Below are positions 5,381 through 18,819 of a DNA stretch of 64,000 nucleotides, one piece after another. The DNA is from an uncultured bacterium (GTDB lineage Bacteria; Zixibacteria; MSB-5A5; JAABVY01; JAHJOQ01): contig CBDUQR010000001.1 of assembly GCA_965369655.1 (NCBI GenBank), forward strand, positions 192,001 to 256,000, given 5' to 3'. The position numbers and the translations under genes are program-made. The notes under the pieces are model-generated. The model saw only the letters and a list, made by a program, of their open reading frames with translations. It did no database searches and was not told the origin of the DNA. Positions within the stretch are counted from its first letter, which is position 1, and each line of letters starts with the position of its first letter.

Positions 5381-6004
5381 TCACGATTGCAGTATAGATA
5401 CAAGGTCAATTCCTTCCCCTGCAACGATTTTCTTCAGTTGTTTCCGGCACTGTCTCAGATCATCTGACACCTTCTTATTACTCTCCTCTGGCCATCCGAG
5501 AACCAGTGCCATTTCTCTCGGCGTATATTCATCGGCCGCGAGTTGGAGCAATAGCTGACAATGCTTCCTGAGTCTGGAGACACATTCCTTCACACATTCA
5601 ATAACGCGCTTTAGATTCGTCCTGTCGAGCGGGTCAATGTCGGAATCTGACGCGATCCAGTCGAGATCAGGGCTGTTCATATCTGACTCATATTGCACAG
5701 TCATGCTTTCCCGTTTCTTCGCTCGAAGATAGTCCAGGCATTTGCGATGGGCGAGTATGTAGAGCCATGCGGCAAACGGCTTGCCGCAATCGGAGTATTG
5801 CCGCAGGACTCTGAAATTGTCCCGCGCACAGTGCAGGATTATATCCTGGGTCAGATCCTGCGATTCTGCTCTCGACAGTCGCCGCATGCTGCCGGGGGGC
5901 TTCACCTTCAGCAATCGGCATGTAAACGAGTAGAATTGTCTGAAAGCCTCGTCCGGGCTGCTATACAGTATATCCAGGAACGATGGCCAGGATTGGTTCA
6001 GCAT
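5381..6004 (-). CDS. ECF-type RNA polymerase sigma factor
   Basis: 207 aa. Region 2 SQDLTQDIILH...FAAWLYILAHRKCLDYLR; region 4 CVSRLRKHCQLLLQLAADEYTPREMALVLG...VSDDLRQCRKQL. Confidence 0.9.
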   Translation of the reverse strand: MLNQSWPSFLDILYSSPDEAFRQFYSFTCRLLKVKPPGSMRRLSRAESQDLTQDIILHCARDNFRVLRQYSDCGKPFAAWLYILAHRKCLDYLRAKKRESMTVQYESDMNSPDLDWIASDSDIDPLDRTNLKRVIECVKECVSRLRKHCQLLLQLAADEYTPREMALVLGWPEESNKKVSDDLRQCRKQLKKIVAGEGIDLVSILQS

Positions 6005-6213: not shown

Positions 6214-8001
6214 CTAATAGATGAAACAGTCCGGTGGTTCCGGGCCACCTCCGAAGATGTAATTGATCAGGAATACAACGTCATCAATGTCGACACTGCC
6301 GCTGCAATTAGCATCACCATTTAGGAGGCGAGGCTGAGGTTCGGGACCTCCGCCGAACACGTAGTTGATGATATAAGTGACGTCATCCACGTCCATCAAA
6401 CCGTTGTTGTCTGCATCGCCGCGAGTCACTGCCAGCAACGCCCGATCAGCATTCACACGCCCCCAGCCTACGTAGTTGTTGACGCGGAGCGTATCGGTTC
6501 CACCATATTGCTCGCGATCTGCTGACAGCCGAATGATCCGCCTGACCCTGTCCGGGTCGCCGATCAGGTCCGGCCTCCTCAGCATCAACAGTATGCATAT
6601 TCCCGACACCTGCGGGCAGGCCGCCGAGGTACCACCGAAGTTGCAGAGGTAGTCTGCGTCCTGCGTCAGGCAGTCCATAGAACCATCGTTTTTCCCCAAC
6701 ACTCCCATCTGGTCAAGGCTCCAGAAATGACCGTTCCAGTTGACATTTGCACCGGGAGCGACGACATCGAGCAGGGGACCATACTGGCTGTAGTACCATC
6801 TCTGGTCAGTGCTGTCCGTCGCACCGACCGAAATCGTGTGAGCATGACAAGCCGGATAGCCGATGGTTGAGTAGCCTGCATTACCTGAGGCAAATACCGT
6901 TACGACTCCAAGATCGTGGGCGCGATTGAGAGCAGAGTCGATTGCTGTGGAAGGCGTTTGAGCTGCTCTCCCCCAACTGTTGGATATTGCCACAGCACCG
7001 GAATCGATAGCGTTGCTCAGAGCTCGACCAATGTCTGACTCGCTTGCAACTGCCCAATGGTGGAATATCTTCTGGTTCAGAACTCGGACGTTGAATCCAG
7101 TTATGCTTGCCAGACCTGTACCATTATTCGTGTTGGCGCAGATTATCCCGGCGGTCGCCATGCCGTGAGCATCAGTTTCCCACGGGGATTCATCGTCCTC
7201 ATCGCTCACGTAGTTCCAGCCATCCGCGAGTCGTCCGGCTGGTAAATCAGCATGTGGGGCAAACCCGTCATCGACTACCGCAACAAGTATCGGTGTTGTC
7301 GGCATGTAGTAATCTCTGGCAAGGTCGAGATCAATGTCGGCATCAGGAGTACCTCCCGTCTGACCGGTATTCTTGAAATGCCACTGGTACTCCCAGTACT
7401 CGTCGTTCGGATCTGAGAAGCGTTCAAACGGTAATATGAAACTCGCGCGTGCAAGCTTAGCGACGCCAAGCTCATAAATGTCGTTTCCGATCGTCAGCAC
7501 ATCCGCAGGAGAGTCCTCTGTTACCTCCAGCGCCTGAAACCGGAAATCACCAAACAGAGTGTCGACAAGAACAAGGTTGTACATGTCGATTATGTTGTAA
7601 ATCGCAGTTCGCGACGTCTCTGCTCTGAATATGACAACCAGACTTCTTGTCAGGTAGATTTCCTGCTCAGTCTCATCGATGAAAGCCGCGTTGGCATAGA
7701 GAATGTCATCTCGGTCCCTTAGCCTGTTGAGCAGGCTGTCGATGTCGTAGCCTTCGTTGACAGTGAGAACGTGAAAGTGACTGGCAATCGGCTCGGGATC
7801 GGCTGTCTCATCCAATGCCTGGTCCGATTCCGTGATGTTCTGCCATGTTGTAAACTGAGCAGGGTCGACCTGCACGGTAACGGCAGTTTCAGAAACATCG
7901 AAGTCAACCCGACCGTCGGGTTCATACCAGAAATAATCCGCTCCATGCGCTGTCATAAAACTGGCAGCTATGAGCGCCAAAATAAGTATTAGCTTTTTCA
8001 T
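6214..8001 (-). CDS. Secreted S8 (subtilisin-like) serine peptidase with C-terminal dockerin
   Basis: Signal peptide. Catalytic motifs VAVVDDG, HGMATAG, GTSAACP and oxyanion ASGN. Duplicated dockerin repeats GDADNNGLMDVDDV and GDANCSGSVDIDDV. Confidence 0.93.
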   Translation of the reverse strand: MKKLILILALIAASFMTAHGADYFWYEPDGRVDFDVSETAVTVQVDPAQFTTWQNITESDQALDETADPEPIASHFHVLTVNEGYDIDSLLNRLRDRDDILYANAAFIDETEQEIYLTRSLVVIFRAETSRTAIYNIIDMYNLVLVDTLFGDFRFQALEVTEDSPADVLTIGNDIYELGVAKLARASFILPFERFSDPNDEYWEYQWHFKNTGQTGGTPDADIDLDLARDYYMPTTPILVAVVDDGFAPHADLPAGRLADGWNYVSDEDDESPWETDAHGMATAGIICANTNNGTGLASITGFNVRVLNQKIFHHWAVASESDIGRALSNAIDSGAVAISNSWGRAAQTPSTAIDSALNRAHDLGVVTVFASGNAGYSTIGYPACHAHTISVGATDSTDQRWYYSQYGPLLDVVAPGANVNWNGHFWSLDQMGVLGKNDGSMDCLTQDADYLCNFGGTSAACPQVSGICILLMLRRPDLIGDPDRVRRIIRLSADREQYGGTDTLRVNNYVGWGRVNADRALLAVTRGDADNNGLMDVDDVTYIINYVFGGGPEPQPRLLNGDANCSGSVDIDDVVFLINYIFGGGPEPPDCFIY

Positions 8002-8004
8002 TTT

Positions 8005-9156
8005 CTATTTCTCCTTTTCCCAGTCAATTGGGATTAGTGCCATTGCTCGGGTATTCCCGAAGTCATTGTGTTTGAAATCGCGAACGATCTGCTTTGTCGC
8101 CATGTCTATCACATGTACCGGCCATGTCCCGAATCCCCAACCATTCAAAACAGCCATCTGTTTGCCGTTGGGTGTAAAGGCAAGGTATCGCGGCATAAAC
8201 CAGGGTGCTCCAAGGTTGTAGTAATCTGCATTAACGAAAGATTCGAAGATACCGGTTGTCAGGTCGTAAACGTCAATTCCACCCATCTCAGGGTTATCAA
8301 ACCCACCGTTCCACGGCATGAACAGGCGTTTCCCGTCCGGATGCCAGATGTACTGTCCGTACGATTGCCATGGGGCTAACCTCAACTCAAACTCGACGCT
8401 GTAATCAGTCGTATTGAGAATCTGGAAGAAAAGCACGCCCGGTCCCTTAATTCCCAGCACGACCAGCGAATCCCCGGAGGGGACAAATGACATGACACCG
8501 GGGACAAGCGGGTCGCCTGCCAGGTTTGTAAGTGGGATTGCAGATATCAGTTCAAGGCTGTCAGATTCGAAGGAGTACACGTACAGACTGTCCTTATGTG
8601 ATTTGGCAACTACCACAACTTTCTTACGTGGATGAAAGGTCATGTTTTCGGAGTGGAATGAGCCATCATTTTCCTCGAAAACCGGGGTCAGTTCCGGAAC
8701 CTTGTAGATAGCTGTGCGGGTTGTTAGGGAAGTGGCAATATACTGACCATCCGCAGAAATCGCCATTTGGATACCGCCATGCTCAGGATCGAATGCGAGT
8801 GTGTCTCCAGTACGGGTATCTGTCACCCATGTTGAGGGCTGTGAGTGCTCACAATTTATTACTGATCTCCGGGTGTAGTATGAGTACTTCCCGTCAGGTG
8901 AAAAAGTCACAGCGTCGAACGGATAGCAGGAGTAGCAAGTCGAATCAATCAGCAGCCCGCTCTTAAGGCTGTAAGTCGTGACAACATAGTCGACCGGCTC
9001 GTAGTTCGGCCGGACATAACTGTACAACAGGTGATAATCCGGCTCGCTCGGACACTCCGGACAAACCGGGCAGTCGTCATCGCCGCAGGAAAGCAGCAGG
9101 GCAAATGCCGATGCCGCGACGAGCATAATAACGATTAGATTAGTTTTGTAGTTCAT
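8005..9156 (-). CDS. Lipoprotein with a YncE/WD40-like beta-propeller
   Basis: Lipobox LLLSC followed by CPVCPEC. Propeller blade motifs FSPDGK, ISADGQ, WHPDGK, FTPNGK. Lies 3 nt upstream of the S8 gene, so probably co-transcribed. Confidence 0.8.
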   Translation of the reverse strand: MNYKTNLIVIMLVAASAFALLLSCGDDDCPVCPECPSEPDYHLLYSYVRPNYEPVDYVVTTYSLKSGLLIDSTCYSCYPFDAVTFSPDGKYSYYTRRSVINCEHSQPSTWVTDTRTGDTLAFDPEHGGIQMAISADGQYIATSLTTRTAIYKVPELTPVFEENDGSFHSENMTFHPRKKVVVVAKSHKDSLYVYSFESDSLELISAIPLTNLAGDPLVPGVMSFVPSGDSLVVLGIKGPGVLFFQILNTTDYSVEFELRLAPWQSYGQYIWHPDGKRLFMPWNGGFDNPEMGGIDVYDLTTGIFESFVNADYYNLGAPWFMPRYLAFTPNGKQMAVLNGWGFGTWPVHVIDMATKQIVRDFKHNDFGNTRAMALIPIDWEKEK

Positions 9157-9465: not shown

Positions 9466-9510
9466 TATGTAGTGCCCTTAAGAATGTGCAACGACGCGCG
9501 CCGACAGGAT

Positions 9511-10578
9511 ATGGACAACAAATCCGAGATCATCAGGGGTTTTCTGAAAGCTCCGTTGAATCGCGATAGATTCGATGAATTCTATGCTCTGATCTACCGT
9601 CACACGGTCGGATATCTCAGCTATCTGAGACGAACAGGATACACGCTTCCAGCCGAGACCGGCGGCAGAGATAATCAGCTCTCCGATCTCGCGATAGATA
9701 TACTCGGAACACTGCTCCGGTGCGATTCGACGCGACCGTTTTATCTGATATTCGATTGTTTCGACAGGCACGGTATCACGGACTTCGATCGTGCCGCACC
9801 GGATGATCTATACTCCTGCCTGATCTCATTGCTACATGGGCATATACATCAGGAACTCAGCAAGCTGCTGAAAGCAACAAACCCTCAGATAGACAATCTG
9901 AAGCGGAGATTCAAAGATATCCTGAAAGGGAAGAATTATGGCTCTCTGAATACGGCGTCTGATACGTCGGAATGCGTGTATCTGCTGAAATATGAGGATG
10001 CACTTAGGGAGAATATGGTGTCATCGTCGGGCGATTTCCTGCTCTGGATAGCCGAGGATGCCTATCTCCAGAGCAACACGAGAAAAGCCTGGTGCAACAT
10101 GATTTTCGAGATGATAAACGAACAGACAGATCATCAGAATTTCACTCGGAAGCATGAACTTCTGGGCACAGTCGTATCAATCAACAGCCGCCAGATGGAA
10201 ATCGATACTATCCCGATGTACAGGCCTCGGAGTCCGATGCAGGAGTCGCTTCACCGCGAAGCGCAGAAATGCAAATCCGTGACGCTCGAATGGGCAAAGA
10301 ATGAAATCCTGAGCCATTTCGTCGAGAAAGGGAATATCAACAAGAGCGATGCCGTCGGACTGATGGCTGCGCTTGAAAAATATCTGAACGATTTCTGCGA
10401 GCATGGCGACACAGACCCGCTTCCGCGATATTTCAGGGAATGTATGCCTGATGAGACTCACAGGATGTATCTCAGCCACTACAAGTACATTTTCGAGACG
10501 CTTGCGGACAAATCGCTCGAATACCTGAAAGTTATTCTGAGAAAAAGAGCTACAGTTTTGGGTCTTGGAGACTATTAG
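9511..10578 (+). CDS. Divergent, enlarged sigma-factor-like protein (355 aa)
   Basis: The N-terminal helices FDEFYALIYRHTVGYL...LSDLAIDILGTLL...LISLLHGHIHQEL resemble ECF region 2. It lies directly upstream of a ZAS protein. I cannot recognise a canonical region-4 HTH, so the sigma call rests largely on context. Confidence 0.5.
   Translation: MDNKSEIIRGFLKAPLNRDRFDEFYALIYRHTVGYLSYLRRTGYTLPAETGGRDNQLSDLAIDILGTLLRCDSTRPFYLIFDCFDRHGITDFDRAAPDDLYSCLISLLHGHIHQELSKLLKATNPQIDNLKRRFKDILKGKNYGSLNTASDTSECVYLLKYEDALRENMVSSSGDFLLWIAEDAYLQSNTRKAWCNMIFEMINEQTDHQNFTRKHELLGTVVSINSRQMEIDTIPMYRPRSPMQESLHREAQKCKSVTLEWAKNEILSHFVEKGNINKSDAVGLMAALEKYLNDFCEHGDTDPLPRYFRECMPDETHRMYLSHYKYIFETLADKSLEYLKVILRKRATVLGLGDY
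10550..10577 (+). promoter_or_regulatory. Putative ECF-type promoter of cassette B, inside the 3' end of the sigma-like gene
   Basis: CTACAGTTTTGGGTCTTGGAGACTATTA, 21/28 identical and ungapped versus 13852-13879. Confidence 0.6.
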
Positions 10579-10607
10579 TACAATGAACGGACACAGGAGG
10601 GTGGATA

Positions 10608-11462
10608 TTGCATCCGTCTAAAGCAGAACTGAGGCTGTTTGTCGAGAACGCCATGCAGGATGCCGCCGCGCGCGCGCGTATCTCTGAGCACATAGGGAAC
10701 TGCGAATTCTGCTCGGAATTCTGTGAGGAGTACACGTTATATCTCGTCTCTATCGAGGACACGGATAGATTAGATCTCTCACAGGCAGCTTTCAATGCCG
10801 CTGATGATATATTCAGGCACGCTCTGCGAGGGGTGATTATTGATATGCAACCTCTCGCAGGCGATATCGATACGCCTCTCAGGCTTGCAGCCGATGGCAA
10901 GGAGGAATTCCGGCCCGAGATTGTTAATCTCGCAACGCTCTGCTCCGAACAACCCGAAGCTATTCTCCGCGTCATGCGCGACAGCGGTCGTGGCATCGAC
11001 TATGTGCAGTTGATCTCCGACGACCCGGAGTTGTCCCAGAACGTGATGATACGGATACCGGAGATCGGATGGGAGTCGCTCACCGATGATGAAGGCAAAG
11101 CGATCATCGAAAAACAGATCGGCGATGACATATCAAACCTCAAGTGGCAGATTAAACTGCCGGATGCCGTATTCTCGATGAAGCCGCTCGAGTATGATCC
11201 TGACGAGACCAGATGCTCAGGCGAAACCGAACTGACTACGGCCGACTCCGACAGGATTCATGTCGAGCTTCAAAGTAAGACCGAAGGCAAACAGATCGTA
11301 ATCAAAATTCTCGAACTAGACGGCAAGAAAGATTTCGGCGATGTCCGGGTCGCCATATCGCAGGGCGGTGTCACAACTACATCGTCAACGTCCGGAAACA
11401 AGACAATCTCGTTCGATTTGACCGACACAGAGAGTGTCATAAACATCAGGATATTCCAGTAA
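10608..11462 (+). CDS. Soluble zinc-binding (ZAS/zf-HC2) anti-sigma factor with C-terminal beta-rich domains
   Basis: TTG start after AGGAGG. Complete ZAS motif H2-x25-H28-x3-C32-x2-C35. No TM helix. Linker motif LRLAADG at aa 91-97. Confidence 0.8.
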   Translation: MHPSKAELRLFVENAMQDAAARARISEHIGNCEFCSEFCEEYTLYLVSIEDTDRLDLSQAAFNAADDIFRHALRGVIIDMQPLAGDIDTPLRLAADGKEEFRPEIVNLATLCSEQPEAILRVMRDSGRGIDYVQLISDDPELSQNVMIRIPEIGWESLTDDEGKAIIEKQIGDDISNLKWQIKLPDAVFSMKPLEYDPDETRCSGETELTTADSDRIHVELQSKTEGKQIVIKILELDGKKDFGDVRVAISQGGVTTTSSTSGNKTISFDLTDTESVINIRIFQ

Positions 11463-11466
11463 CACA

Positions 11467-13842
11467 ATGTCCCTGCTGCAATTTGCAAAAGAATTCGCGA
11501 AGCTCAAATCGGACCTTGCCGCCCAGCCGGTTCCCGATTTGCAGCTCCTGTGTCTGATTGATTTCTGGCCGAGCCTCGCGGATCACGCTGCCGAGAGTTC
11601 ATACCGGAGTTATCTCGATGAATATGTGCCACTGCTGCTACACCTGATCTCAGCCGAGAATCTCTCCGATCTCACCATGCACGAGCTATTGCACTTACAA
11701 GATGTGCTCGCCGATCTTTCCGCGCTTGAATCGGTGAATGACAAACTCAAAGATCAACGCAGGCTTGTTTCGCAGGAACTTGCGCGACGGTATTTCTATG
11801 CCGGAGCGGTCGAAGATGCCCTGACAATATGCATCGAACCATCGTGGGCGGCAGAAGCAGTAGGTCGGCGTTCCGTAGCAGGCGAAGCCTGCAAGAAACC
11901 CGACACCAGCACAACAAAGAGTAAGTGTCGCGTTTCTCTCCCTCGTACCTCGGCATCGGAACACGACCTACAAGATCTAAGCGAGTTCGAAGCATTTGAA
12001 TCAATCATCGAACATACCCGAGGCCGCGACAACTCGCTCGACGCTTTCCTGAGCAATCTCCATGACGATTGGCAGGGCGACCGCGACGCGATCTATCACG
12101 ACCGGATCAACGCGCTGTTTGTCGACAAGGATGACGCCGGTCGTGCATGGCGCGGCAGGATGAAATCACTCACCGGCAAGGTCGAGCTGTTCGGCAAATC
12201 GGCTACGACCGACGAGATCACGTTCGACAACCAGATCAAATCGCCGGATGATCCATTTATCGGCGTGGCGTATCATTCGCTCGATGCTGTGCGGCAATCG
12301 ATGAAACGCGCAAGGTTTAGGAAACAGTCTGAGGCGTTCTATCATGCTCATTTCGCGGTCGAGAATAGCCAGCAGACATTCACCGGCGATTCGATTGGGC
12401 TGGCGACAGGGCTGCTGACTTACGCGCAGCTTCTGGAACCTGAGATCATGCGGCAGGACAAGTTCATCGGGGCGGATATCGCTGTCACGGGTGGTGTGGA
12501 TGATTCCGGCGCAGTAACACAGGTCAACGACGATACATTGAAGCTCAAAATCGAACGGGCGTTTTTCTCGCCGGTCAGGCATATTATCGTGCCGGATGGG
12601 AATCTGTCTGCTGCGCGTGAGCATATCGAGAAATTGCGAGAGAGATATCCGCGCAGGCGGCTCAGGCTGATCGGAGTTGAATCGCTGACCGATGCAATCG
12701 AGAACAGGAATATCATCCGCGAGGAAAAAGTCTGCATCGGCGAATTCGTCACGAAACAAGTTTACCACTACAGTCGCACAGCCAAAATTCAAGTACCGAT
12801 ACTGCTGATACTCGCATACTTCCTCCTCTGCATGATCTACCCAAAAGCATGGGTGGGATTTGATTGGAATCCGGCAAGTGTGGAACTGACGGAGACTGGA
12901 TTTGTCGCTCTGAACGCTGATTCAAGGTCCTTATGGTCAGTTGAATATGAGTGTGAATTGCTCTATGCGAGATCGCAATGGACAATGAGCGATTTGAACG
13001 GCGATGGCATGAATGACGTAGTTTTCATGCCTATGGCGTCCCCCAATGCTCCCTGCAGAAGCAACGCTCATCTTTTCGCGTACGACCACACAGGCAAAGA
13101 ACTGTTCGCAAGGCAGGGGGCGGTTCTTGGTGAATATGTGAGTGATACATCTGCTAATTTCCCATATTCGGCGGGTTTAATTGACGTTGTACAAGTCAGT
13201 GGAACGAGTGTCATCGTCAGCAGGGTCTATGCATCCTACCCTGCTCGTTACCACATCAAAATGTGGAGTACTGATGGCGACTCTCTCGGTTGGTACATAA
13301 ACTCAGGATATAGCGGTGTTGTGAATGAAAAATGTTTCGCTGTCGATAGATACGGCAACCTGATGTTTCTTGCGCTCAACAATCGTATGGGTTGTGCCTG
13401 CTTTTTCGTAATTGCTCCGGATTCGAGCTATGGCGTGTCACCACCTTATCCTGAATGGCTTCGTGGCCAAAGAGGACTTAGACACGGGAACCAACTATGC
13501 TATCTTCTGTTTCCGCGCACAGATATTAACCGCGAGATAGAACTGGATTACAATGGACCATTCCGTATTGTCATCAACTCCAGTGACGAGATTCGAGTCG
13601 ATATAGGTGAATCTAAAGAACCCGAATGCAACCTAAGCTATTTCCTTGACGAGAACTTCCGTGTTACACATGTAAAAGCCGATGACCGGTTCATCCCACT
13701 TAGGCGTCGCCTCATAGACGAAGGGAAACTCCCTTCAGTGGACTTGTCTACGTATCTGGCCAATCTTGTCGACTCAGTTACCTACTGGACCGACTCCGGC
13801 TGGGTAACCGAAGGCGAACTCCGCGCCTTGGAAAAAAACTGA
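11467..13842 (+). CDS. Membrane-anchored Lon-type (S16) protease domain without AAA+ module, fused to an extracytoplasmic beta-rich domain
   Basis: FTGDS309IGLA...IAVTGGVDDSGAVTQV...LKLK361IERA...IIVPDGN aligns to Lon-C GPSAG...AMTGEI...G.V...LKEK...VLIP..N. No Walker A motif and no signal peptide. TM helix at about aa 441-458. The C-terminal domain contains FG-GAP-like DLNGDGMNDVV. Confidence 0.8.
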   Translation: MSLLQFAKEFAKLKSDLAAQPVPDLQLLCLIDFWPSLADHAAESSYRSYLDEYVPLLLHLISAENLSDLTMHELLHLQDVLADLSALESVNDKLKDQRRLVSQELARRYFYAGAVEDALTICIEPSWAAEAVGRRSVAGEACKKPDTSTTKSKCRVSLPRTSASEHDLQDLSEFEAFESIIEHTRGRDNSLDAFLSNLHDDWQGDRDAIYHDRINALFVDKDDAGRAWRGRMKSLTGKVELFGKSATTDEITFDNQIKSPDDPFIGVAYHSLDAVRQSMKRARFRKQSEAFYHAHFAVENSQQTFTGDSIGLATGLLTYAQLLEPEIMRQDKFIGADIAVTGGVDDSGAVTQVNDDTLKLKIERAFFSPVRHIIVPDGNLSAAREHIEKLRERYPRRRLRLIGVESLTDAIENRNIIREEKVCIGEFVTKQVYHYSRTAKIQVPILLILAYFLLCMIYPKAWVGFDWNPASVELTETGFVALNADSRSLWSVEYECELLYARSQWTMSDLNGDGMNDVVFMPMASPNAPCRSNAHLFAYDHTGKELFARQGAVLGEYVSDTSANFPYSAGLIDVVQVSGTSVIVSRVYASYPARYHIKMWSTDGDSLGWYINSGYSGVVNEKCFAVDRYGNLMFLALNNRMGCACFFVIAPDSSYGVSPPYPEWLRGQRGLRHGNQLCYLLFPRTDINREIELDYNGPFRIVINSSDEIRVDIGESKEPECNLSYFLDENFRVTHVKADDRFIPLRRRLIDEGKLPSVDLSTYLANLVDSVTYWTDSGWVTEGELRALEKN

Positions 13843-13851
13843 AGAACATCT

Positions 13852-13879
13852 CTACAGATTTCCTCCTTGGTGTCTATTA
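13852..13879 (+). promoter_or_regulatory. Putative ECF-type promoter of cassette B, upstream of the secreted target gene
   Basis: CTACAGATTTCCTCCTTGGTGTCTATTA, matching 10550-10577. Confidence 0.6.
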
Positions 13880-13917
13880 TTGGTTTAGAAGTTAAACCTG
13901 AACTGAGGAGATGTCCA

Positions 13918-15333
13918 ATGACTTCAAAATGTTTCTATGTGTTCATCACACTGCTCTTTCTTGCTCCGTATGCTAATGCAACAGACCCGCCCGGAAATGT
14001 GCTGGTCTATGCAACGTACGTGGGCGGCAACGGTTATGACCAGTATATGTTTGATTCAACTCTAGTCGGAGTTTTGTATGAGCGCGGTTACAATGCCACA
14101 GTAACAGACAGGACCGAAACAACGGAGATAACTGCTCTACTGTTGGAGAACTATGATCAGCTTTGGTTTTTCTCTACTCAAGAAGGTCCGAGCGTGGAAC
14201 TAGCCCCTGAGGAGATCAATGCAATTCTGGCATTTCAATCCCAGGGCAAAGGGCTATTCATAGCTGCTGAAAATGCACCACATTATACGTACACTGCTAA
14301 CTTGGTTGCCTGTTCACTAGGTGTGACTTTTTGGGGAATTGTCGATCACGCTGAAGGAGATGCTGGTGGTATCATTATCTTCCCTGAGTTTGAAGACCAT
14401 CCCTTGTTTTGCGGGGTGTCCCAGATTTCTGCATATAGGAACGAATGCGATATGTCTGTTGTGCCGCCTGCTGATGTAGTCGCAACCTACAACGGTCACA
14501 ATCTAATCGCTGTACGAGACGCCGGCGCAGGCCGGTGTGTTTTTGACGTTAGTTTCGTCAGAGCATTCGATGGTCAGATTATGAGGGGTGACAATGCGCA
14601 ATACTACGGCAATATTGCTGATTGGTTGCAGTTCTGCGTTCCGTCCATCACTATGATTTCTCCTGACCCAACCTACGTCTACTGGGCTTTTGCTATGATA
14701 CCGATGGTGGAAAAAGTATACATTGGTGATTTCGGTTGTGGCTATACAGCAAGCGATATAAATCCGTGGTCTGTCCTTCTGAACGGATCGGTTTCGCCAG
14801 TAGATTTCGAGATTCTTCCCGGTATGGAAGGTTTCACAGGCGAAGTGATGGAACTGCACTATCCTCTCGCAGATTTCATCTGGACATACCCTGTTCTTTA
14901 CGACACAACCTTGCAGGAATATGGCGTTGCTGGTATGTTTACCGATGGTCATACTTTCGCTGCCTCGGGAGATGTCACGATCATTGGCAAGAACTCTCGC
15001 GCAACTCGTAATGTATACCTCAAGCCAGACAACGACGAAATCAGCATTAAGCCATCAGAGTTCGCGCTGTACCAGAATCAGCCGAATCCATTCAATCCGA
15101 CGACTGAGATCAGTTTCAATCTGCCTGTGATGTCGAATGTCAGGCTTGATGTCTACAATATCACTGGACAGAAAGTCACAACGCTCGTCGATGGACCGAT
15201 GCAGCCGGGACCGCATTCGGTGACATGGAACGGCATGTCCGACAGCGGCGAACCGGTCGCGTCCGGCATTTATTTCTATCGTATCGAGGCCGGAGATTTC
15301 ACGGAGAACAAGAAGATGCTGCTTCTCAAATAG
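13918..15333 (+). CDS. Secreted protein with a GATase/DUF4350-like N-domain and FlgD-Ig/T9SS-like C-terminal sorting domain
   Basis: ATG after GAGGAG; signal peptide ending ANA-T. C-terminal YQNQPNPFNPTTEISF...VASGIYFYRI...KKMLLLK. The N-domain call (LLENYDQLWF...GKGLFIAAE) is tentative. Confidence 0.75.
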   Translation: MTSKCFYVFITLLFLAPYANATDPPGNVLVYATYVGGNGYDQYMFDSTLVGVLYERGYNATVTDRTETTEITALLLENYDQLWFFSTQEGPSVELAPEEINAILAFQSQGKGLFIAAENAPHYTYTANLVACSLGVTFWGIVDHAEGDAGGIIIFPEFEDHPLFCGVSQISAYRNECDMSVVPPADVVATYNGHNLIAVRDAGAGRCVFDVSFVRAFDGQIMRGDNAQYYGNIADWLQFCVPSITMISPDPTYVYWAFAMIPMVEKVYIGDFGCGYTASDINPWSVLLNGSVSPVDFEILPGMEGFTGEVMELHYPLADFIWTYPVLYDTTLQEYGVAGMFTDGHTFAASGDVTIIGKNSRATRNVYLKPDNDEISIKPSEFALYQNQPNPFNPTTEISFNLPVMSNVRLDVYNITGQKVTTLVDGPMQPGPHSVTWNGMSDSGEPVASGIYFYRIEAGDFTENKKMLLLK

Positions 15334-15708: not shown

Positions 15709-18700
15709 TTAATTCTTGACTGCGGCAGAACCCTTGACTTTGACGATGATTTTCCTCGCACATTCTTCAGGCTTCAATCCTGAGATGTCAATGTACCCGA
15801 CGAGTGAAGACAAACCTTCAAGCTCAGAGTTATCAAATCTCATCGGTAGGATATAACCTTCAGCTTTCTGAGCGATGACTTTCGACAATGCGGACTTGAA
15901 CTCATGATTCGTCCATCCCTTTTCAACATAGTCCTTAGATATGAATATAACGACCCGTTCGGATTCCTTCCCATAGATCCTGCTAAATTCATTAGCCAAA
16001 TCCTTTCCCCAAAGCTCCACTTCATAATCCTCGTCATAGAAAACGTTAATGTCGCCTTCTTCATCTAAAGTCTTTTTCACTTGACGAACATAGTTCCGTT
16101 GCTCACCTGCAAAGGAGAGAGCGACATCGAATTTCTTGCCTCCCACAGTACCAACCTTGACCTTCGGTACAGCTTCTTCATGTTCAACCCTTGCAAGCTC
16201 AGCCTTAATTTCGGCGTATCTGCTCGGATCAATCCTAAAGGACTGCGCTCCGCTCAGTCCATTAATCATAACATACTTAATATTTGTGTTCGAAGGCACC
16301 CGCTCAAGCAAACCAGCCCTGTTCAAATTTCGTAGCCAATTGGACATTTCCTCCTGTTCGTTGGGGAAGTTGTGGCACAGATCGAAGATACTAATCGGTT
16401 GTTCTGGCATCTCGCTATTGATGTCAAGGATGAACTTGAGTATCAGACTGCGGAGTGTACGACCTTTACTTATTGGAATATGTGGTGGAGATTCATAGTC
16501 ATCAGTTTTAAAGGTAAATTCCGTGGCACCAGGCTCTTCGGAAATCATTCTCAAGGCGAATCTGATGGTCTCATAGTGCATCTGGTTTTTTTGCTCATCG
16601 AAGTGTGTCTTAATCAGCAATGATGTTACCAATACTCTGAAACTTGAGTCCCCGTTTACTTGACGGAAATCATATATCCACCTGATCATATCTTGTGGAT
16701 CATCTTTACCAAAGTCAGATTTTCTGGCCAATACCAGATAGCGGCGAGGTTCACCTTTCACAACGGTTATCGTGTAACCTAAATGAGCCATATTGTGTCT
16801 TCCCCTTAGTACTAGCGAGTAGTGCTCGTCTTTGAGTACTTCGATCGCTTTCTCCCTGATTTCATACGCCCTTTCATACAGCGGCTCCGCATCATCATAT
16901 CTGCCCTGAGTCTCGTAGAGTATGGCGAGGCTTTCGAGGTCAGCAGCGACCTTTAGGTGATCTGAACCGTAGATATTCTCGTCAATCTTAAGCGCCCTCT
17001 TGTACAACAGTTCCGCTTGGCCGTAGTCAGCTCGGTCATGAAGATAGTAGCCGGTGCGACTGAATAGCTGGGCTACAGTCTCGTTAGAAATCTCCAGCGA
17101 ATCTGTATGTTGAACTAGTGAGAGTATGTGCGGCAATATTGTCTCGCATTCAGACCAGGTCCTATAATCTCTTTCATCCGGGAGCGTCTCTGAGGTGCAA
17201 ACTATAGCCAACTCCGCCCACTTACGCGCATCACCTGATTCAGTGTGATTATCACGTATAACCGCCTGGAGCAGACGGTGCAAGCTGAATTCATCAGTAT
17301 CTCGTTTGCGACGGATCAGCGAATAGCTCTGAAGTGCCCCGAGAGCCTTGTCCAATTCGAATGTGTCATAGGCAACACTCTTGAGATTATCGTCGAATGA
17401 ATCCACTCTCTTCCTGAACAGACCAAGCGGAATGGCATCAGGTGCGAAGTATGCCGCAAGCGATAGAACATCAATTGCTACCTTACTCTTCTGCTGAAGT
17501 GTTTCTAGAGACATCGACCATGTTGTGGCAACAGTGTGATCATAATCATCTGGCGAGTAACGTTTATCTTTAAGTACCTCGATCCCCTTTTCCTTGAGAT
17601 CGTTCAGGTAATCGTCCAGACTGCACCGTGTCTTTTCGACAAACGCACCCGCCTGATCGACTGCCAGCGGCAGCAGACCGAGCTCATTGGAGATATCCTT
17701 CGCTGTCCGGTGTTGATCATCCGTCGGCTCTTCGATATTAGCTCGTTTCAGGAGAAAATCTATAGCTTCATCTTCGGCCATCTCGGTTACTTCGAGAGCC
17801 TTCGCAAGATTACCAAAAGCCGAAGCTCTGGAGGTTAAGAGTGTTTGTCCCTGCCCTGAGCGTGGTTGATACTCTTTGATGATCTCAGGTTTGTCCGCAT
17901 TATCGTATATCAGCAGCCATTCGTTGTGAGTTTCAAGCCATGTCTTGACAGCAGCAACAACAACTCCTAATTCCTTATCATCCTTCTCCGGAAGATTAAG
18001 AAGTCTGGCGATTTCACTGTAGCTGGATGTTATTGTAGTTTCAGATTCAGAGTTGACCCAGATTATGAACTTGTAGTCTTTGATATGTTGATATGCATAT
18101 TCGACAGCGATCTGTGTCTTGCCGATTCCTCCCAATCCTGATATGGCTTGAGGCTGTGACAATGCAGTACTGCCAGACTTACTCAGCGATTCATGAAGAT
18201 CCTTCAACAAGTCTTCACGACCGGTAAACAGAGGATTCTGCGGGAAAGGGAGATTGTGCAGTGTCACACCGGGAATTTCGTATGGCTTGAATGCCTCGGA
18301 ATCGATGTATCCTCTAACATCAAGAGGTAACTCTGCAGGATTCCTGATTTCTATTTGTTGTCTCATTCCCATGCGTTCAAATATCATTTTGAGAAAGAGA
18401 TCCAACCGTCTACTAACTTTCGCCGAAAGCAACTGTTGCAGCGGCTGCTGAGACCACATGCGATCTTCGAGTCTTTGTACGAAGAACATGATCGCTTCTT
18501 TCTCATTATCTCCAATGGTAAAGTCGCGATATGTATCTTCCAAATCTTTCCACAACCTGTCAAAATCGACTGGTTCTGTGATACCCGGATCGAGTAATTT
18601 CCGCCACAGTTCGTCATTCACTGATTCGTTGATAATGAAGCTGTGGTCAACAGAACCATGACCACCAGTGTCGTATCCCTGTTTAGCCAAATCTTTAAGA

Positions 18701-18819
18701 GTTTCTTTGAGAGCATCGCGAAACGCTGACCGCTGCTTTTTATCTGTGAGCCATTGATCAACTTTGTGGCCAAGAATTGCCGTAGCCGCGAGTTCTATAA
18801 TCTTGAAAATCATGCTCAA
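15709..18819 (-). CDS. NLR-like STAND (NB-ARC) NTPase with TPRs, a winged helix and a C-terminal TIR domain
   Basis: HNLPFPQNPLFTGRE, Walker A GLGGIGKT, Walker B LLIYDNAD, LLTSR, LGLLPLA and MHD-like LHRL, followed by about 2 TPRs. C-terminal TIR FDVALSFAGEQR...VFYD...FISKDY...WTNHE. Start is TTG 18819 or ATG 18813. Confidence 0.88.
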   Translation of the reverse strand: MSMIFKIIELAATAILGHKVDQWLTDKKQRSAFRDALKETLKDLAKQGYDTGGHGSVDHSFIINESVNDELWRKLLDPGITEPVDFDRLWKDLEDTYRDFTIGDNEKEAIMFFVQRLEDRMWSQQPLQQLLSAKVSRRLDLFLKMIFERMGMRQQIEIRNPAELPLDVRGYIDSEAFKPYEIPGVTLHNLPFPQNPLFTGREDLLKDLHESLSKSGSTALSQPQAISGLGGIGKTQIAVEYAYQHIKDYKFIIWVNSESETTITSSYSEIARLLNLPEKDDKELGVVVAAVKTWLETHNEWLLIYDNADKPEIIKEYQPRSGQGQTLLTSRASAFGNLAKALEVTEMAEDEAIDFLLKRANIEEPTDDQHRTAKDISNELGLLPLAVDQAGAFVEKTRCSLDDYLNDLKEKGIEVLKDKRYSPDDYDHTVATTWSMSLETLQQKSKVAIDVLSLAAYFAPDAIPLGLFRKRVDSFDDNLKSVAYDTFELDKALGALQSYSLIRRKRDTDEFSLHRLLQAVIRDNHTESGDARKWAELAIVCTSETLPDERDYRTWSECETILPHILSLVQHTDSLEISNETVAQLFSRTGYYLHDRADYGQAELLYKRALKIDENIYGSDHLKVAADLESLAILYETQGRYDDAEPLYERAYEIREKAIEVLKDEHYSLVLRGRHNMAHLGYTITVVKGEPRRYLVLARKSDFGKDDPQDMIRWIYDFRQVNGDSSFRVLVTSLLIKTHFDEQKNQMHYETIRFALRMISEEPGATEFTFKTDDYESPPHIPISKGRTLRSLILKFILDINSEMPEQPISIFDLCHNFPNEQEEMSNWLRNLNRAGLLERVPSNTNIKYVMINGLSGAQSFRIDPSRYAEIKAELARVEHEEAVPKVKVGTVGGKKFDVALSFAGEQRNYVRQVKKTLDEEGDINVFYDEDYEVELWGKDLANEFSRIYGKESERVVIFISKDYVEKGWTNHEFKSALSKVIAQKAEGYILPMRFDNSELEGLSSLVGYIDISGLKPEECARKIIVKVKGSAAVKN

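Follow-up and report, generated by a model that had tools for sequence, protein, structure and literature searches.

A near-invariant Leu-Ala-Ala motif in a soluble anti-sigma protein of Zixibacteria as the probable cut site of an adjoining membrane-anchored Lon-type protease

A 64,000-nucleotide stretch of the genome of an uncultured bacterium of the Zixibacteria (assembly GCA_965369655.1, contig CBDUQR010000001.1; the whole stretch is referred to here as the window) encodes three consecutive proteins on its forward strand, namely, up368 (a candidate sigma-like protein), as284 (a putative zinc-binding anti-sigma [ZAS] factor), and lon791 (a Lon-type protease with a membrane helix) (Table 1). 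Our subject is a Leu-Ala-Ala tripeptide (LAA; L93-A94-A95) in as284. According to the original prediction for this locus, which was made from the sequence alone, the neighboring Lon domain cuts as284 after A95, and ClpXP then removes the sigma-binding fragment that ends in LAA. The motif is read from window positions 10872 to 10898 of the forward strand (ACG CCT CTC AGG CTT GCA GCC GAT GGC), which encode T89-P-L-R-L93-A94-A95-D96-G97. Because the homologues share the MHPS N terminus and a GGAGG sequence lies 8 nucleotides upstream, the TTG start and the numbering of L93-A94-A95 were taken to be right. An antisense open reading frame (ORF) of 148 amino acids (window positions 10550 to 10996, reverse strand) overlaps the motif region and was taken as a by-product of the coding strand.

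Table 1. Features of the up368-as284-lon791 module (window coordinates)
Feature	Position	Strand	Basis or remark
up368	9472..10578	+	368 amino acids, no known family
as284	10608..11462	+	ORF, 284 amino acids, TTG start
Four-helix anti-sigma domain, residues 5-73	10620..10826	+	AlphaFold2: helices 5-12, 19-31, 33-54, 59-73
H28-x3-C32-x2-C35 zinc motif	10689-10712	+	Sequence
Flexible linker, residues 74-104	10827..10919	+	AlphaFold2
[LMI]-A-A-[D/Q/E]-[G/S] island, L93-G97	10884..10898	+	Conservation; proposed scissile bond after A95
L93; A94; A95	10884-10886; 10887-10889; 10890-10892	+	Counted from the TTG start
Two beta-sandwich domains, residues 105-195 and 197-284	10920..11459	+	AlphaFold2 strands
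lon791	11467..13842	+	791 amino acids; starts 4 nucleotides past the as284 stop
N-terminal helical region, residues 2-60, predicted as284 docking site	11470..11646	+	Complex model
Lon_C-type (S16) protease domain, residues 269-412	12271..12702	+	hhalign
Ser309; Lys361	12391-12393; 12547-12549	+	hhalign to catalytic pair
Single transmembrane helix, residues 439-459	12781..12843	+	Kyte-Doolittle mean 2.19 over 19 residues
Extracytoplasmic FG-GAP-like (beta-propeller-like) domain, candidate sensor	12844..13839	+	Family profile matches

The position assigned to the tripeptide in the original prediction, a linker between the ZAS domain and the C-terminal beta domains, was confirmed by the translation and by an AlphaFold2 model of as284 (built from a 51-row alignment; mean predicted local distance difference test [pLDDT] score of 84.8). 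In this model, the linker shows no regular secondary structure except for a three-residue helical turn at residues 94 to 96. Block pLDDT values were 64, 50, and 60 for residues 71 to 80, 81 to 90, and 91 to 100, respectively, and 87 to 93 for the next blocks; the beta strands that extend from residue 105 to the C terminus score 83 to 93. LAA is thus predicted to lie outside the folded domains, and the part of the linker N-terminal to it is variable in both sequence and length.

The identification of the N-terminal part of as284 as an anti-sigma domain is supported by several lines of evidence that are weak but concordant. None of the ungapped rows of a 177-member family alignment departs from the residues of the HxxxCxxC motif (H28, C32, and C35), zf-HC2 (PF13490) matched 21 of 51 homologues (best E value of 2.3e-7), and the best sequence match of the family profile among solved chains was RsiW (E value of 0.018). 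The fold of residues 1 to 74 resembles those of RslA (3hug_B; middling Z score of 6.4, root mean square deviation [rmsd] of 5.1, 61 residues aligned), RsiW (Z score of 6.2), MucA (8z6g_A; Z score of 6.1, rmsd of 2.3, 52 residues aligned), and PupR (Z score of 5.6), with anti-sigma folds accounting for 4 of the 50 rows of the structure comparison. The two beta-sandwich domains yielded only generic immunoglobulin-, macroglobulin-, or cupredoxin-like matches (Z scores of up to 7.2). Scans of as284 and up368 against Pfam, NCBIfam, and PADLOC returned nothing, and Foldseek searches with the two models gave no match at E values of up to 0.001, the as284 rows being weakly arrestin/Vps26-like. Judged from its sequence, as284 is soluble; no hydrophobic segment was found (top 19-residue Kyte-Doolittle mean of 0.8).

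Conservation of the tripeptide was evaluated in a broad set of relatives. A word-indexed search gave 51 relatives of as284, which, where named, were Zixibacteria hypothetical proteins and one Fe-S oxidoreductase. HMMER, run exhaustively against 1.84 billion representatives, gave 203 matches at E values of up to 0.001; the listing covered the best 150 of these. The alignment comprised 177 of 195 family members (P0001 to P0051 and P0143 to P0286) with lengths of 225 to 340 amino acids, after 18 shorter or longer pieces were dropped; identity to as284 ranged from 16% to 84% (median, 35%). Two members, P0206 (331 amino acids) and P0212 (324 amino acids), carry two tandem HxxxCxxC domains, followed by the same LAAD linker and beta domains.

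A lone LAA in one protein is not significant, since the composition of a 284-residue protein predicts 0.12 occurrences of LAA (0.29 of [LMI]AA). Across the family, its conservation is far beyond chance. Positions 94 and 95 are each Ala in 176 of the 177 sequences, and position 93 is L (148 sequences), M (15), or I (9), i.e., [LMI] in 172. The six deviants at positions 93 to 95 read NAA, WAA, RAA (twice), PAG, and LRA. D96 is kept in 139 sequences, and the residue at position 97 is mostly G (119 sequences) or S (35). Column entropies for positions 93 to 97 were 0.9, 0.05, 0.05, 1.2, and 1.6 bits, compared with 3.2 to 3.8 bits for positions 84 to 92 and 3.4 to 3.7 bits for positions 98 to 102. 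Among the 284 positions, only H28, C32, and C35 had entropies below those of A94 and A95. The prediction that LAA would be conserved while its flanks vary was therefore borne out. The order of conservation in the island is AA, then L, and then D and G; distant members have Q, K, or E in place of D96 but retain LAA. Given that AA is absent from only 2 of the 177 sequences, at least 58 of the 60 members less than 30% identical to as284 keep it. The AA dipeptide is unique within the linker in 161 of the 177 sequences, so that an alignment artifact does not explain the motif column. At the level of genome loci, 41 of the 43 that cover the linker have [LMIV]AA, and the other two have NAA and FAA. 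Loss of the motif from loci that lack an adjacent protease gene was considered and refuted, since such loci retain it (SVAADG, SIAADN, SLAAHG, and LLAADG).

The neighbor of as284 does bear a Lon domain, as had been proposed. In a profile-profile comparison (hhalign), the lon791 family aligned with the Lon_C domains of the three LonA proteins of the same genome (probability of 94.9%, E value of 4.8e-8, 130 columns), with GDS309IG placed on GPSAG and K361 placed on the catalytic Lys of LonA. Residues G307, D308, S309, I310, T341, and K361 are invariant in the family alignment (36 sequences). Lon_C (PF05362) matched 6 of the 36 members (best E value of 5.7e-4), the family profile weakly matched the LonB protease domain 1z0b among solved chains (E value of 0.005), and scans of lon791 itself against Pfam, NCBIfam, and PADLOC gave only a weak PADLOC match, to CARF_LON (E value of 5.8e-4). 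At E values of up to 10, lon791 was not among the eight PF05362 matches of its genome. The assignments of Lon_C to lon791 and of zf-HC2 to as284 are thus predictions derived from homologues and profiles. Neither lon791 nor any of the 36 members matched an AAA family, so that lon791 does not have the AAA+ ATPase module of a canonical LonA or LonB; the region before its Lon domain is helical and of no recognized family. Because K, R, and K precede the transmembrane helix and acidic residues follow it (positive-inside rule), the Lon half should be cytoplasmic. For the other half, the family profile matched 6mlt, a hemolysin-related FG-GAP protein (E value of 6.3e-5), and the YesW propeller, and FG-GAP_3 and FG-GAP were found in 9 and 5 of the 36 members, respectively. 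An antibody match from a single-sequence search of lon791 against solved chains was dismissed as chance. On the basis of the near-invariance of LAA in the family and of the adjoining membrane-anchored Lon-type protease, the tripeptide is probably a protease cut site.

Structure prediction of the complex supports binding between the two proteins. We modeled residues 1 to 435 of lon791 together with the whole of as284, each with its own alignment. The interface scores (ipSAE) were 0.70, 0.70, and 0.71, compared with 0.00 for the best control; of 157 solved complexes, 116 attained the ipSAE mark used, as did 2 of 215 mismatched pairs, counts that serve only as a rough calibration because own alignments were used. 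The runs shared at least 94% of contacts, and the partner pLDDT was at least 74. In the predicted interface, residues 2 to 60 of lon791, including the nearly invariant S2, A7, Y46, and Y49, contact residues 83 to 93, 101 to 138, and 162 to 163 of as284, i.e., the last stretch of the linker plus the first beta-sandwich with the conserved residues N107, T110, E117, R121, and M123. Recall by the predictor of the solved CalpL-CalpT10 complex, which follows the same logic, seems unlikely, as no sequence likeness to it is detectable.

The position of the motif relative to this docking domain is nearly fixed. The distance from the motif to the anchor residue R121 is 22 to 28 residues (mode, 25), and that from the motif to the zinc motif varies from 40 to 96 residues, which ties the proposed cut site to the docking domain; a fixed spacing is what a ruler between the docking site and the active site would give. 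The same spacing would also suit an alternative in which LAADG is not cut and instead serves as a docking or latch motif on the lon791 helices or on the beta-domain of as284 itself, in which case regulation would rely on binding and release or on degradation of as284 as a whole. Linker residues 83 to 87, 91, 93, and 101 touch lon791 in the model, and the short helical turn predicted at residues 94 to 96 could belong to such a latch. We nevertheless regard it as unlikely: the motif region has low pLDDT, A94, A95, D96, and G97 lie outside the confident contacts (residues not named there being uncertain, not excluded), and a near-absolute Ala-Ala beside a protease whose catalytic pair is intact matches the site described for CalpT in the available portions of 10.1101/2024.05.08.593097. 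For the cut itself, the complex model gave no support for cleavage in cis, with the motif in the active site of its own chain. Because the active site is outside the confident interface, cleavage in trans was assumed.

Several features of the degron side could be examined in the genome and in its relatives. ClpX (615 bits) and ClpP (324 bits) are encoded in the same genome, both above the cutoffs, in a clpP-clpX-lon cluster on contig 47. After a cut behind A95, the new C terminus would read ...DIDTPLRLAA, preceded by about 20 linker residues, i.e., an unstructured tail that ends with a hydrophobic residue and two alanines. The residues L, A, and A, listed in order of importance, are the ClpX determinants of the ssrA tag. 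Transfer-messenger RNA (tmRNA) genes were detected above the cutoff in 23 of the 31 genomes of the relatives set, and because the window's own assembly yielded none, tag sequences were taken from 10 related genomes. All 10 tags read there end in ALAA (6 tags), AMAA (3 tags, those from the same genus and family included), or AIAA (1 tag); the tag ends, [LMI]AA, therefore draw on the same L/M/I set as position 93 of as284. The two sequences differ in origin, as the ssrA tag is added at the C terminus by trans-translation, whereas the tripeptide of as284 is internal and would need a cut to act. Covariation of the −3 residue between tag and motif within a genome was looked for and not seen in the two genomes in which both were read.

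The presumed partner of as284 is encoded by up368. The AlphaFold2 model of up368 (mean pLDDT, 90.2) contains a region, residues 13 to 135, that resembles the sigma-2 domains of extracytoplasmic function (ECF) sigma factors in 9 of 50 rows (Z scores of 5.4 to 6.6, a range in which, below 8, matches of helical domains may reflect a common arrangement). The matches include SigC (2o7g_B; Z score of 6.6, rmsd of 3.0, 86 residues aligned) and AlgU (8z6g_B; Z score of 6.2, rmsd of 3.1, 85 residues aligned), with further rows for BldN, SigI6, SigE, CnrH, and SigK. Profiles of Sigma70 region 2 and region 4 did not match up368, which is thus not recognizable as an ECF sigma factor by sequence. Foldseek gave only scattered helical rows for the up368 model. 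A protein atlas was also tried and set aside, as it returned unnamed clusters and sigma-family leads of 0.83, below its own trust level. The model is suggestive only, and we consider up368 a candidate for a highly divergent sigma-like partner; it would act as a sigma factor, and what points to its binding by as284 is gene adjacency only. An ordinary ECF-type sigma factor is encoded 3.5 kb upstream on the opposite strand (window positions 5381 to 6004; TIGR02937, E value of 7.9e-13; Sigma70_r2), and no anti-sigma gene was noticed beside it.

The closest parallel to this arrangement is the CalpL-CalpT-CalpS system, the protease, anti-sigma factor, and ECF-like sigma factor, respectively, of type III CRISPR systems. 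In the available portions of its description (10.1101/2024.05.08.593097), CalpL, a SAVED-Lon protein, cuts CalpT within a poorly structured region, at the A204-A205 bond of an LAAA motif; the resulting ...LQLAA end is a C-degron that is abolished by A204D, and the terminal AA is described as crucial in ClpX tags. The same source reports that the C-terminal part of CalpT docks on CalpL, that a neighboring subunit makes the cut, and that the cut CalpT fragments remain on CalpS. The idea that ClpXP acts on CalpT is repeated in PMC11417357, as far as its available text shows. The analogy with CalpL invoked in the original prediction, in which cleavage of CalpT exposes a C-degron, is hence confirmed by those portions of the paper and is exact, the cut being LAA|A and the degron LAA, and the conservation order AA > L > D/G in as284 matches the crucial terminal AA of ClpX tags. 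Both systems place a Lon-type Ser-Lys protease that lacks an ATPase module beside anti-sigma and sigma-like genes, and in our complex model, as in CalpL-CalpT, the part of as284 after the motif docks on the N-terminal region of the protease, away from the active site. They differ in that SAVED and CARF families were not found in lon791 or among the families of the 36 members, the candidate sensor being an FG-GAP-like domain behind a membrane helix, and in that CalpT is MazF-like, whereas as284 has a zinc-binding helical domain. The lon791 family profile showed no similarity to CalpL among solved chains at E values of up to 10, the CARF_LON match in PADLOC being the only, weak, one. Without a SAVED domain or a CRISPR (clustered regularly interspaced short palindromic repeat) context, lon791 falls outside the CalpL family. 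No Cas family was matched by any of the eight neighboring genes scanned, and no search was made for CRISPR arrays. By analogy, the module appears to work like CalpL, with an envelope sensor replacing the nucleotide sensor.

Regulated proteolysis of other anti-sigma factors follows a similar logic. In the RseA/DegS/RseP/ClpXP pathway of sigma-E and in the RsdA/ClpX-ClpP1P2 pathway of Mycobacterium tuberculosis, proteolysis bares a cryptic xAA end (VAA) on the sigma-binding fragment, which ClpXP then removes, and a VDD mutant blocks removal, according to the available portions of PMC3597663. In those cases, the anti-sigma factor spans the membrane and is cut by a site-1 protease and then by a site-2 protease; here as284 is predicted to be soluble and lon791 spans the membrane, so that a site-2-type step is not implied. 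The ZAS proteins RsiW, RslA, and ChrR share HxxxCxxC with as284, the first 74 residues of which have a predicted fold resembling those of RslA and RsiW. Unlike them, as284 lacks a membrane helix, its C-terminal half consists of two unrecognized beta-sandwich domains, and its neighboring partner is not a recognizable ECF sigma factor. RsiW carries an alanine-rich cryptic tag. A literature search that covered main texts in one library brought up no account of a ZAS anti-sigma factor coupled to a Lon-type membrane protease.

Every part of the original prediction that could be tested in silico held, and we propose the following sequence of events. The sigma-like up368, the soluble zinc-binding anti-sigma as284, and the sensor-protease lon791 would form one signaling module, in which the first beta-sandwich of as284 docks on the N-terminal helices of lon791. 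A signal received by the outer domain would cause the Lon domain, perhaps that of a neighboring subunit as in CalpL, to cut the linker at [LMI]-A-A|D-G. The N-terminal fragment, with its partner still bound, would then end in ...LAA and mimic the ssrA tag of the clade, and its unfolding and degradation by ClpXP would free the partner for transcription. We infer the cut, the exact bond, activation through the outer domain, and ClpXP as the degrading enzyme; for the chain from docking through the LAA|DG cut to ClpXP removal of the sigma-binding fragment, the chances appear about even. The fuller version, in which lon791 is an ATP-independent sensor-protease that makes the LAA|DG cut at a fixed distance from its docking site and exposes a copy of the ssrA tag, so that ClpXP frees a sigma-like partner invisible to profiles, is put forward more tentatively.

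A number of observations weigh against this sequence of events. At the level of family assignment, as284 itself has no zf-HC2 match and lon791 itself has no Lon_C match in Pfam at E values of up to 0.1, and no sigma family was found for up368 by sequence in Pfam and NCBIfam, for 39 members of its family in Pfam (E values of up to 0.05), or in a comparison of its profile with solved chains. In the complex model, neither A94 nor A95 is at Ser309, the active site lies outside the confident interface, and L93 and residues 83 to 91 contact the protease, so that the island could belong to the docking interface. As to the tags, no tmRNA was found in the window's own assembly (ARAGORN, 100 contigs; the Rfam model gave only tRNA-sized matches below the cutoff), and the −3 residues of tag and motif are unmatched in G003 (AMAA and LAA) and G023 (AIAA and MAA). 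That assembly is rated 99.5% complete, and its tmRNA gene is probably located in an unassembled gap. D96 and G97 are also conserved, and a pure degron would not need them. Finally, in the available portions of PMC3597663, ClpXP failed to degrade RslA bearing an AAA end, and an xAA end alone is therefore insufficient.

The last two points also favor a reading in which the island is both recognized and cut by the Lon-type protease and LAA is not a ClpX degron, or in which a neighboring bond (e.g., A94|A95) is cut. Conservation of D96 and G97 beyond the proposed bond points to protease specificity, and the cut could be enough to release the partner, or further trimming by lon791, LonA (the genome has three full LonA-type genes), or another protease could do so. 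We consider this improbable, given that the entropy of AA is 0.05 bits compared with 1.2 to 1.6 bits for D and G, and that distant members that swap D for Q, K, or E keep LAA. Moreover, cleavage by itself does not release the sigma factor from CalpT or RseA, according to the available portions of 10.1101/2024.05.08.593097 and PMC3597663.

The module was further examined in related genomes. In 43 of 44 related loci, the up368 gene immediately precedes the anti-sigma gene, and in 37 a Lon-type gene immediately follows it. Of the remaining seven loci, three are at contig ends and four have other genes, such as alanine racemase, rex, and recA in L008. The module is present in a single copy in the window's genome. 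It was found in 8 of the 31 related genomes (own genome included) and was not found in a same-genus genome that is 94% complete. One relative, G010, has three copies (L076, L082, and L083). Three copies on different contigs are also seen in DSEQ01 (L015, L022, and L023) and CAYJKI01 (L026, L028, and L029), where L028 and L029 appear identical. L080 (G019:C19:58292-58810) is weakly related to the anti-sigma gene, contains one in-frame TGA, and is possibly a broken copy. The module is thus an accessory, expandable system.

This patchy distribution would also be consistent with a defense system rather than a sigma pathway, and the four informative loci that lack an adjacent Lon-type gene would fit a scheme in which another protease uses the site and lon791 is a scaffold or sensor. 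The weak CARF_LON match of the Lon domain and a gene of the NB-ARC/TPR/TIR type 1.9 kb away point in the same direction. Both possibilities seem remote to us. The catalytic Ser and Lys and the motif surrounding them are invariant in all 36 sequences, neither as284 nor up368 has a PADLOC match, and in three of the four genomes whose informative locus lacks an adjacent Lon-type gene, the protease is encoded elsewhere.

The genes around the module offer further context. The NB-ARC/TPR/TIR gene (window positions 15709 to 18819, reverse strand) encodes a protein of 1,036 amino acids that combines NB-ARC and TPR domains with a TIR domain at the C terminus. Such a STAND-type architecture is typical of defense genes, and the protein matched PDC-S66 in PADLOC (E value of 6.7e-12). 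The module is flanked by genes for secreted proteins (window positions 6214 to 9156, reverse strand, and 13867 to 15333, forward strand), which encode an S8 subtilase ending in a dockerin-like tail, a 383-amino-acid beta-propeller-like protein, and a 488-amino-acid protein that carries a sorting tail for type IX secretion. Proteins with such sorting tails recur near the module in many related loci, and the flanking secreted proteins are possible targets of the pathway.

Anti-sigma factors are usually cleared by a relay of membrane proteases. Here, a single membrane-anchored Lon-type protein would combine the roles of sensor and protease, and its substrate would be a soluble anti-sigma factor. 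If the proposed mechanism is true, the module represents an undescribed route for carrying a signal across the membrane and a CRISPR-independent counterpart of CalpL-CalpT-CalpS, and the exposure of LAA by a cut followed by ClpXP would be general to Lon-type signaling proteases and not peculiar to one defense system. Should the cut be confirmed, up368 would become a candidate for a very divergent sigma-like class, and the five-residue motif would provide a handle to find the substrates of other orphan Lon-type proteases. The LAA-exposing logic, shown for one CRISPR-linked protease, would then reach ordinary envelope signaling in an uncultured phylum.

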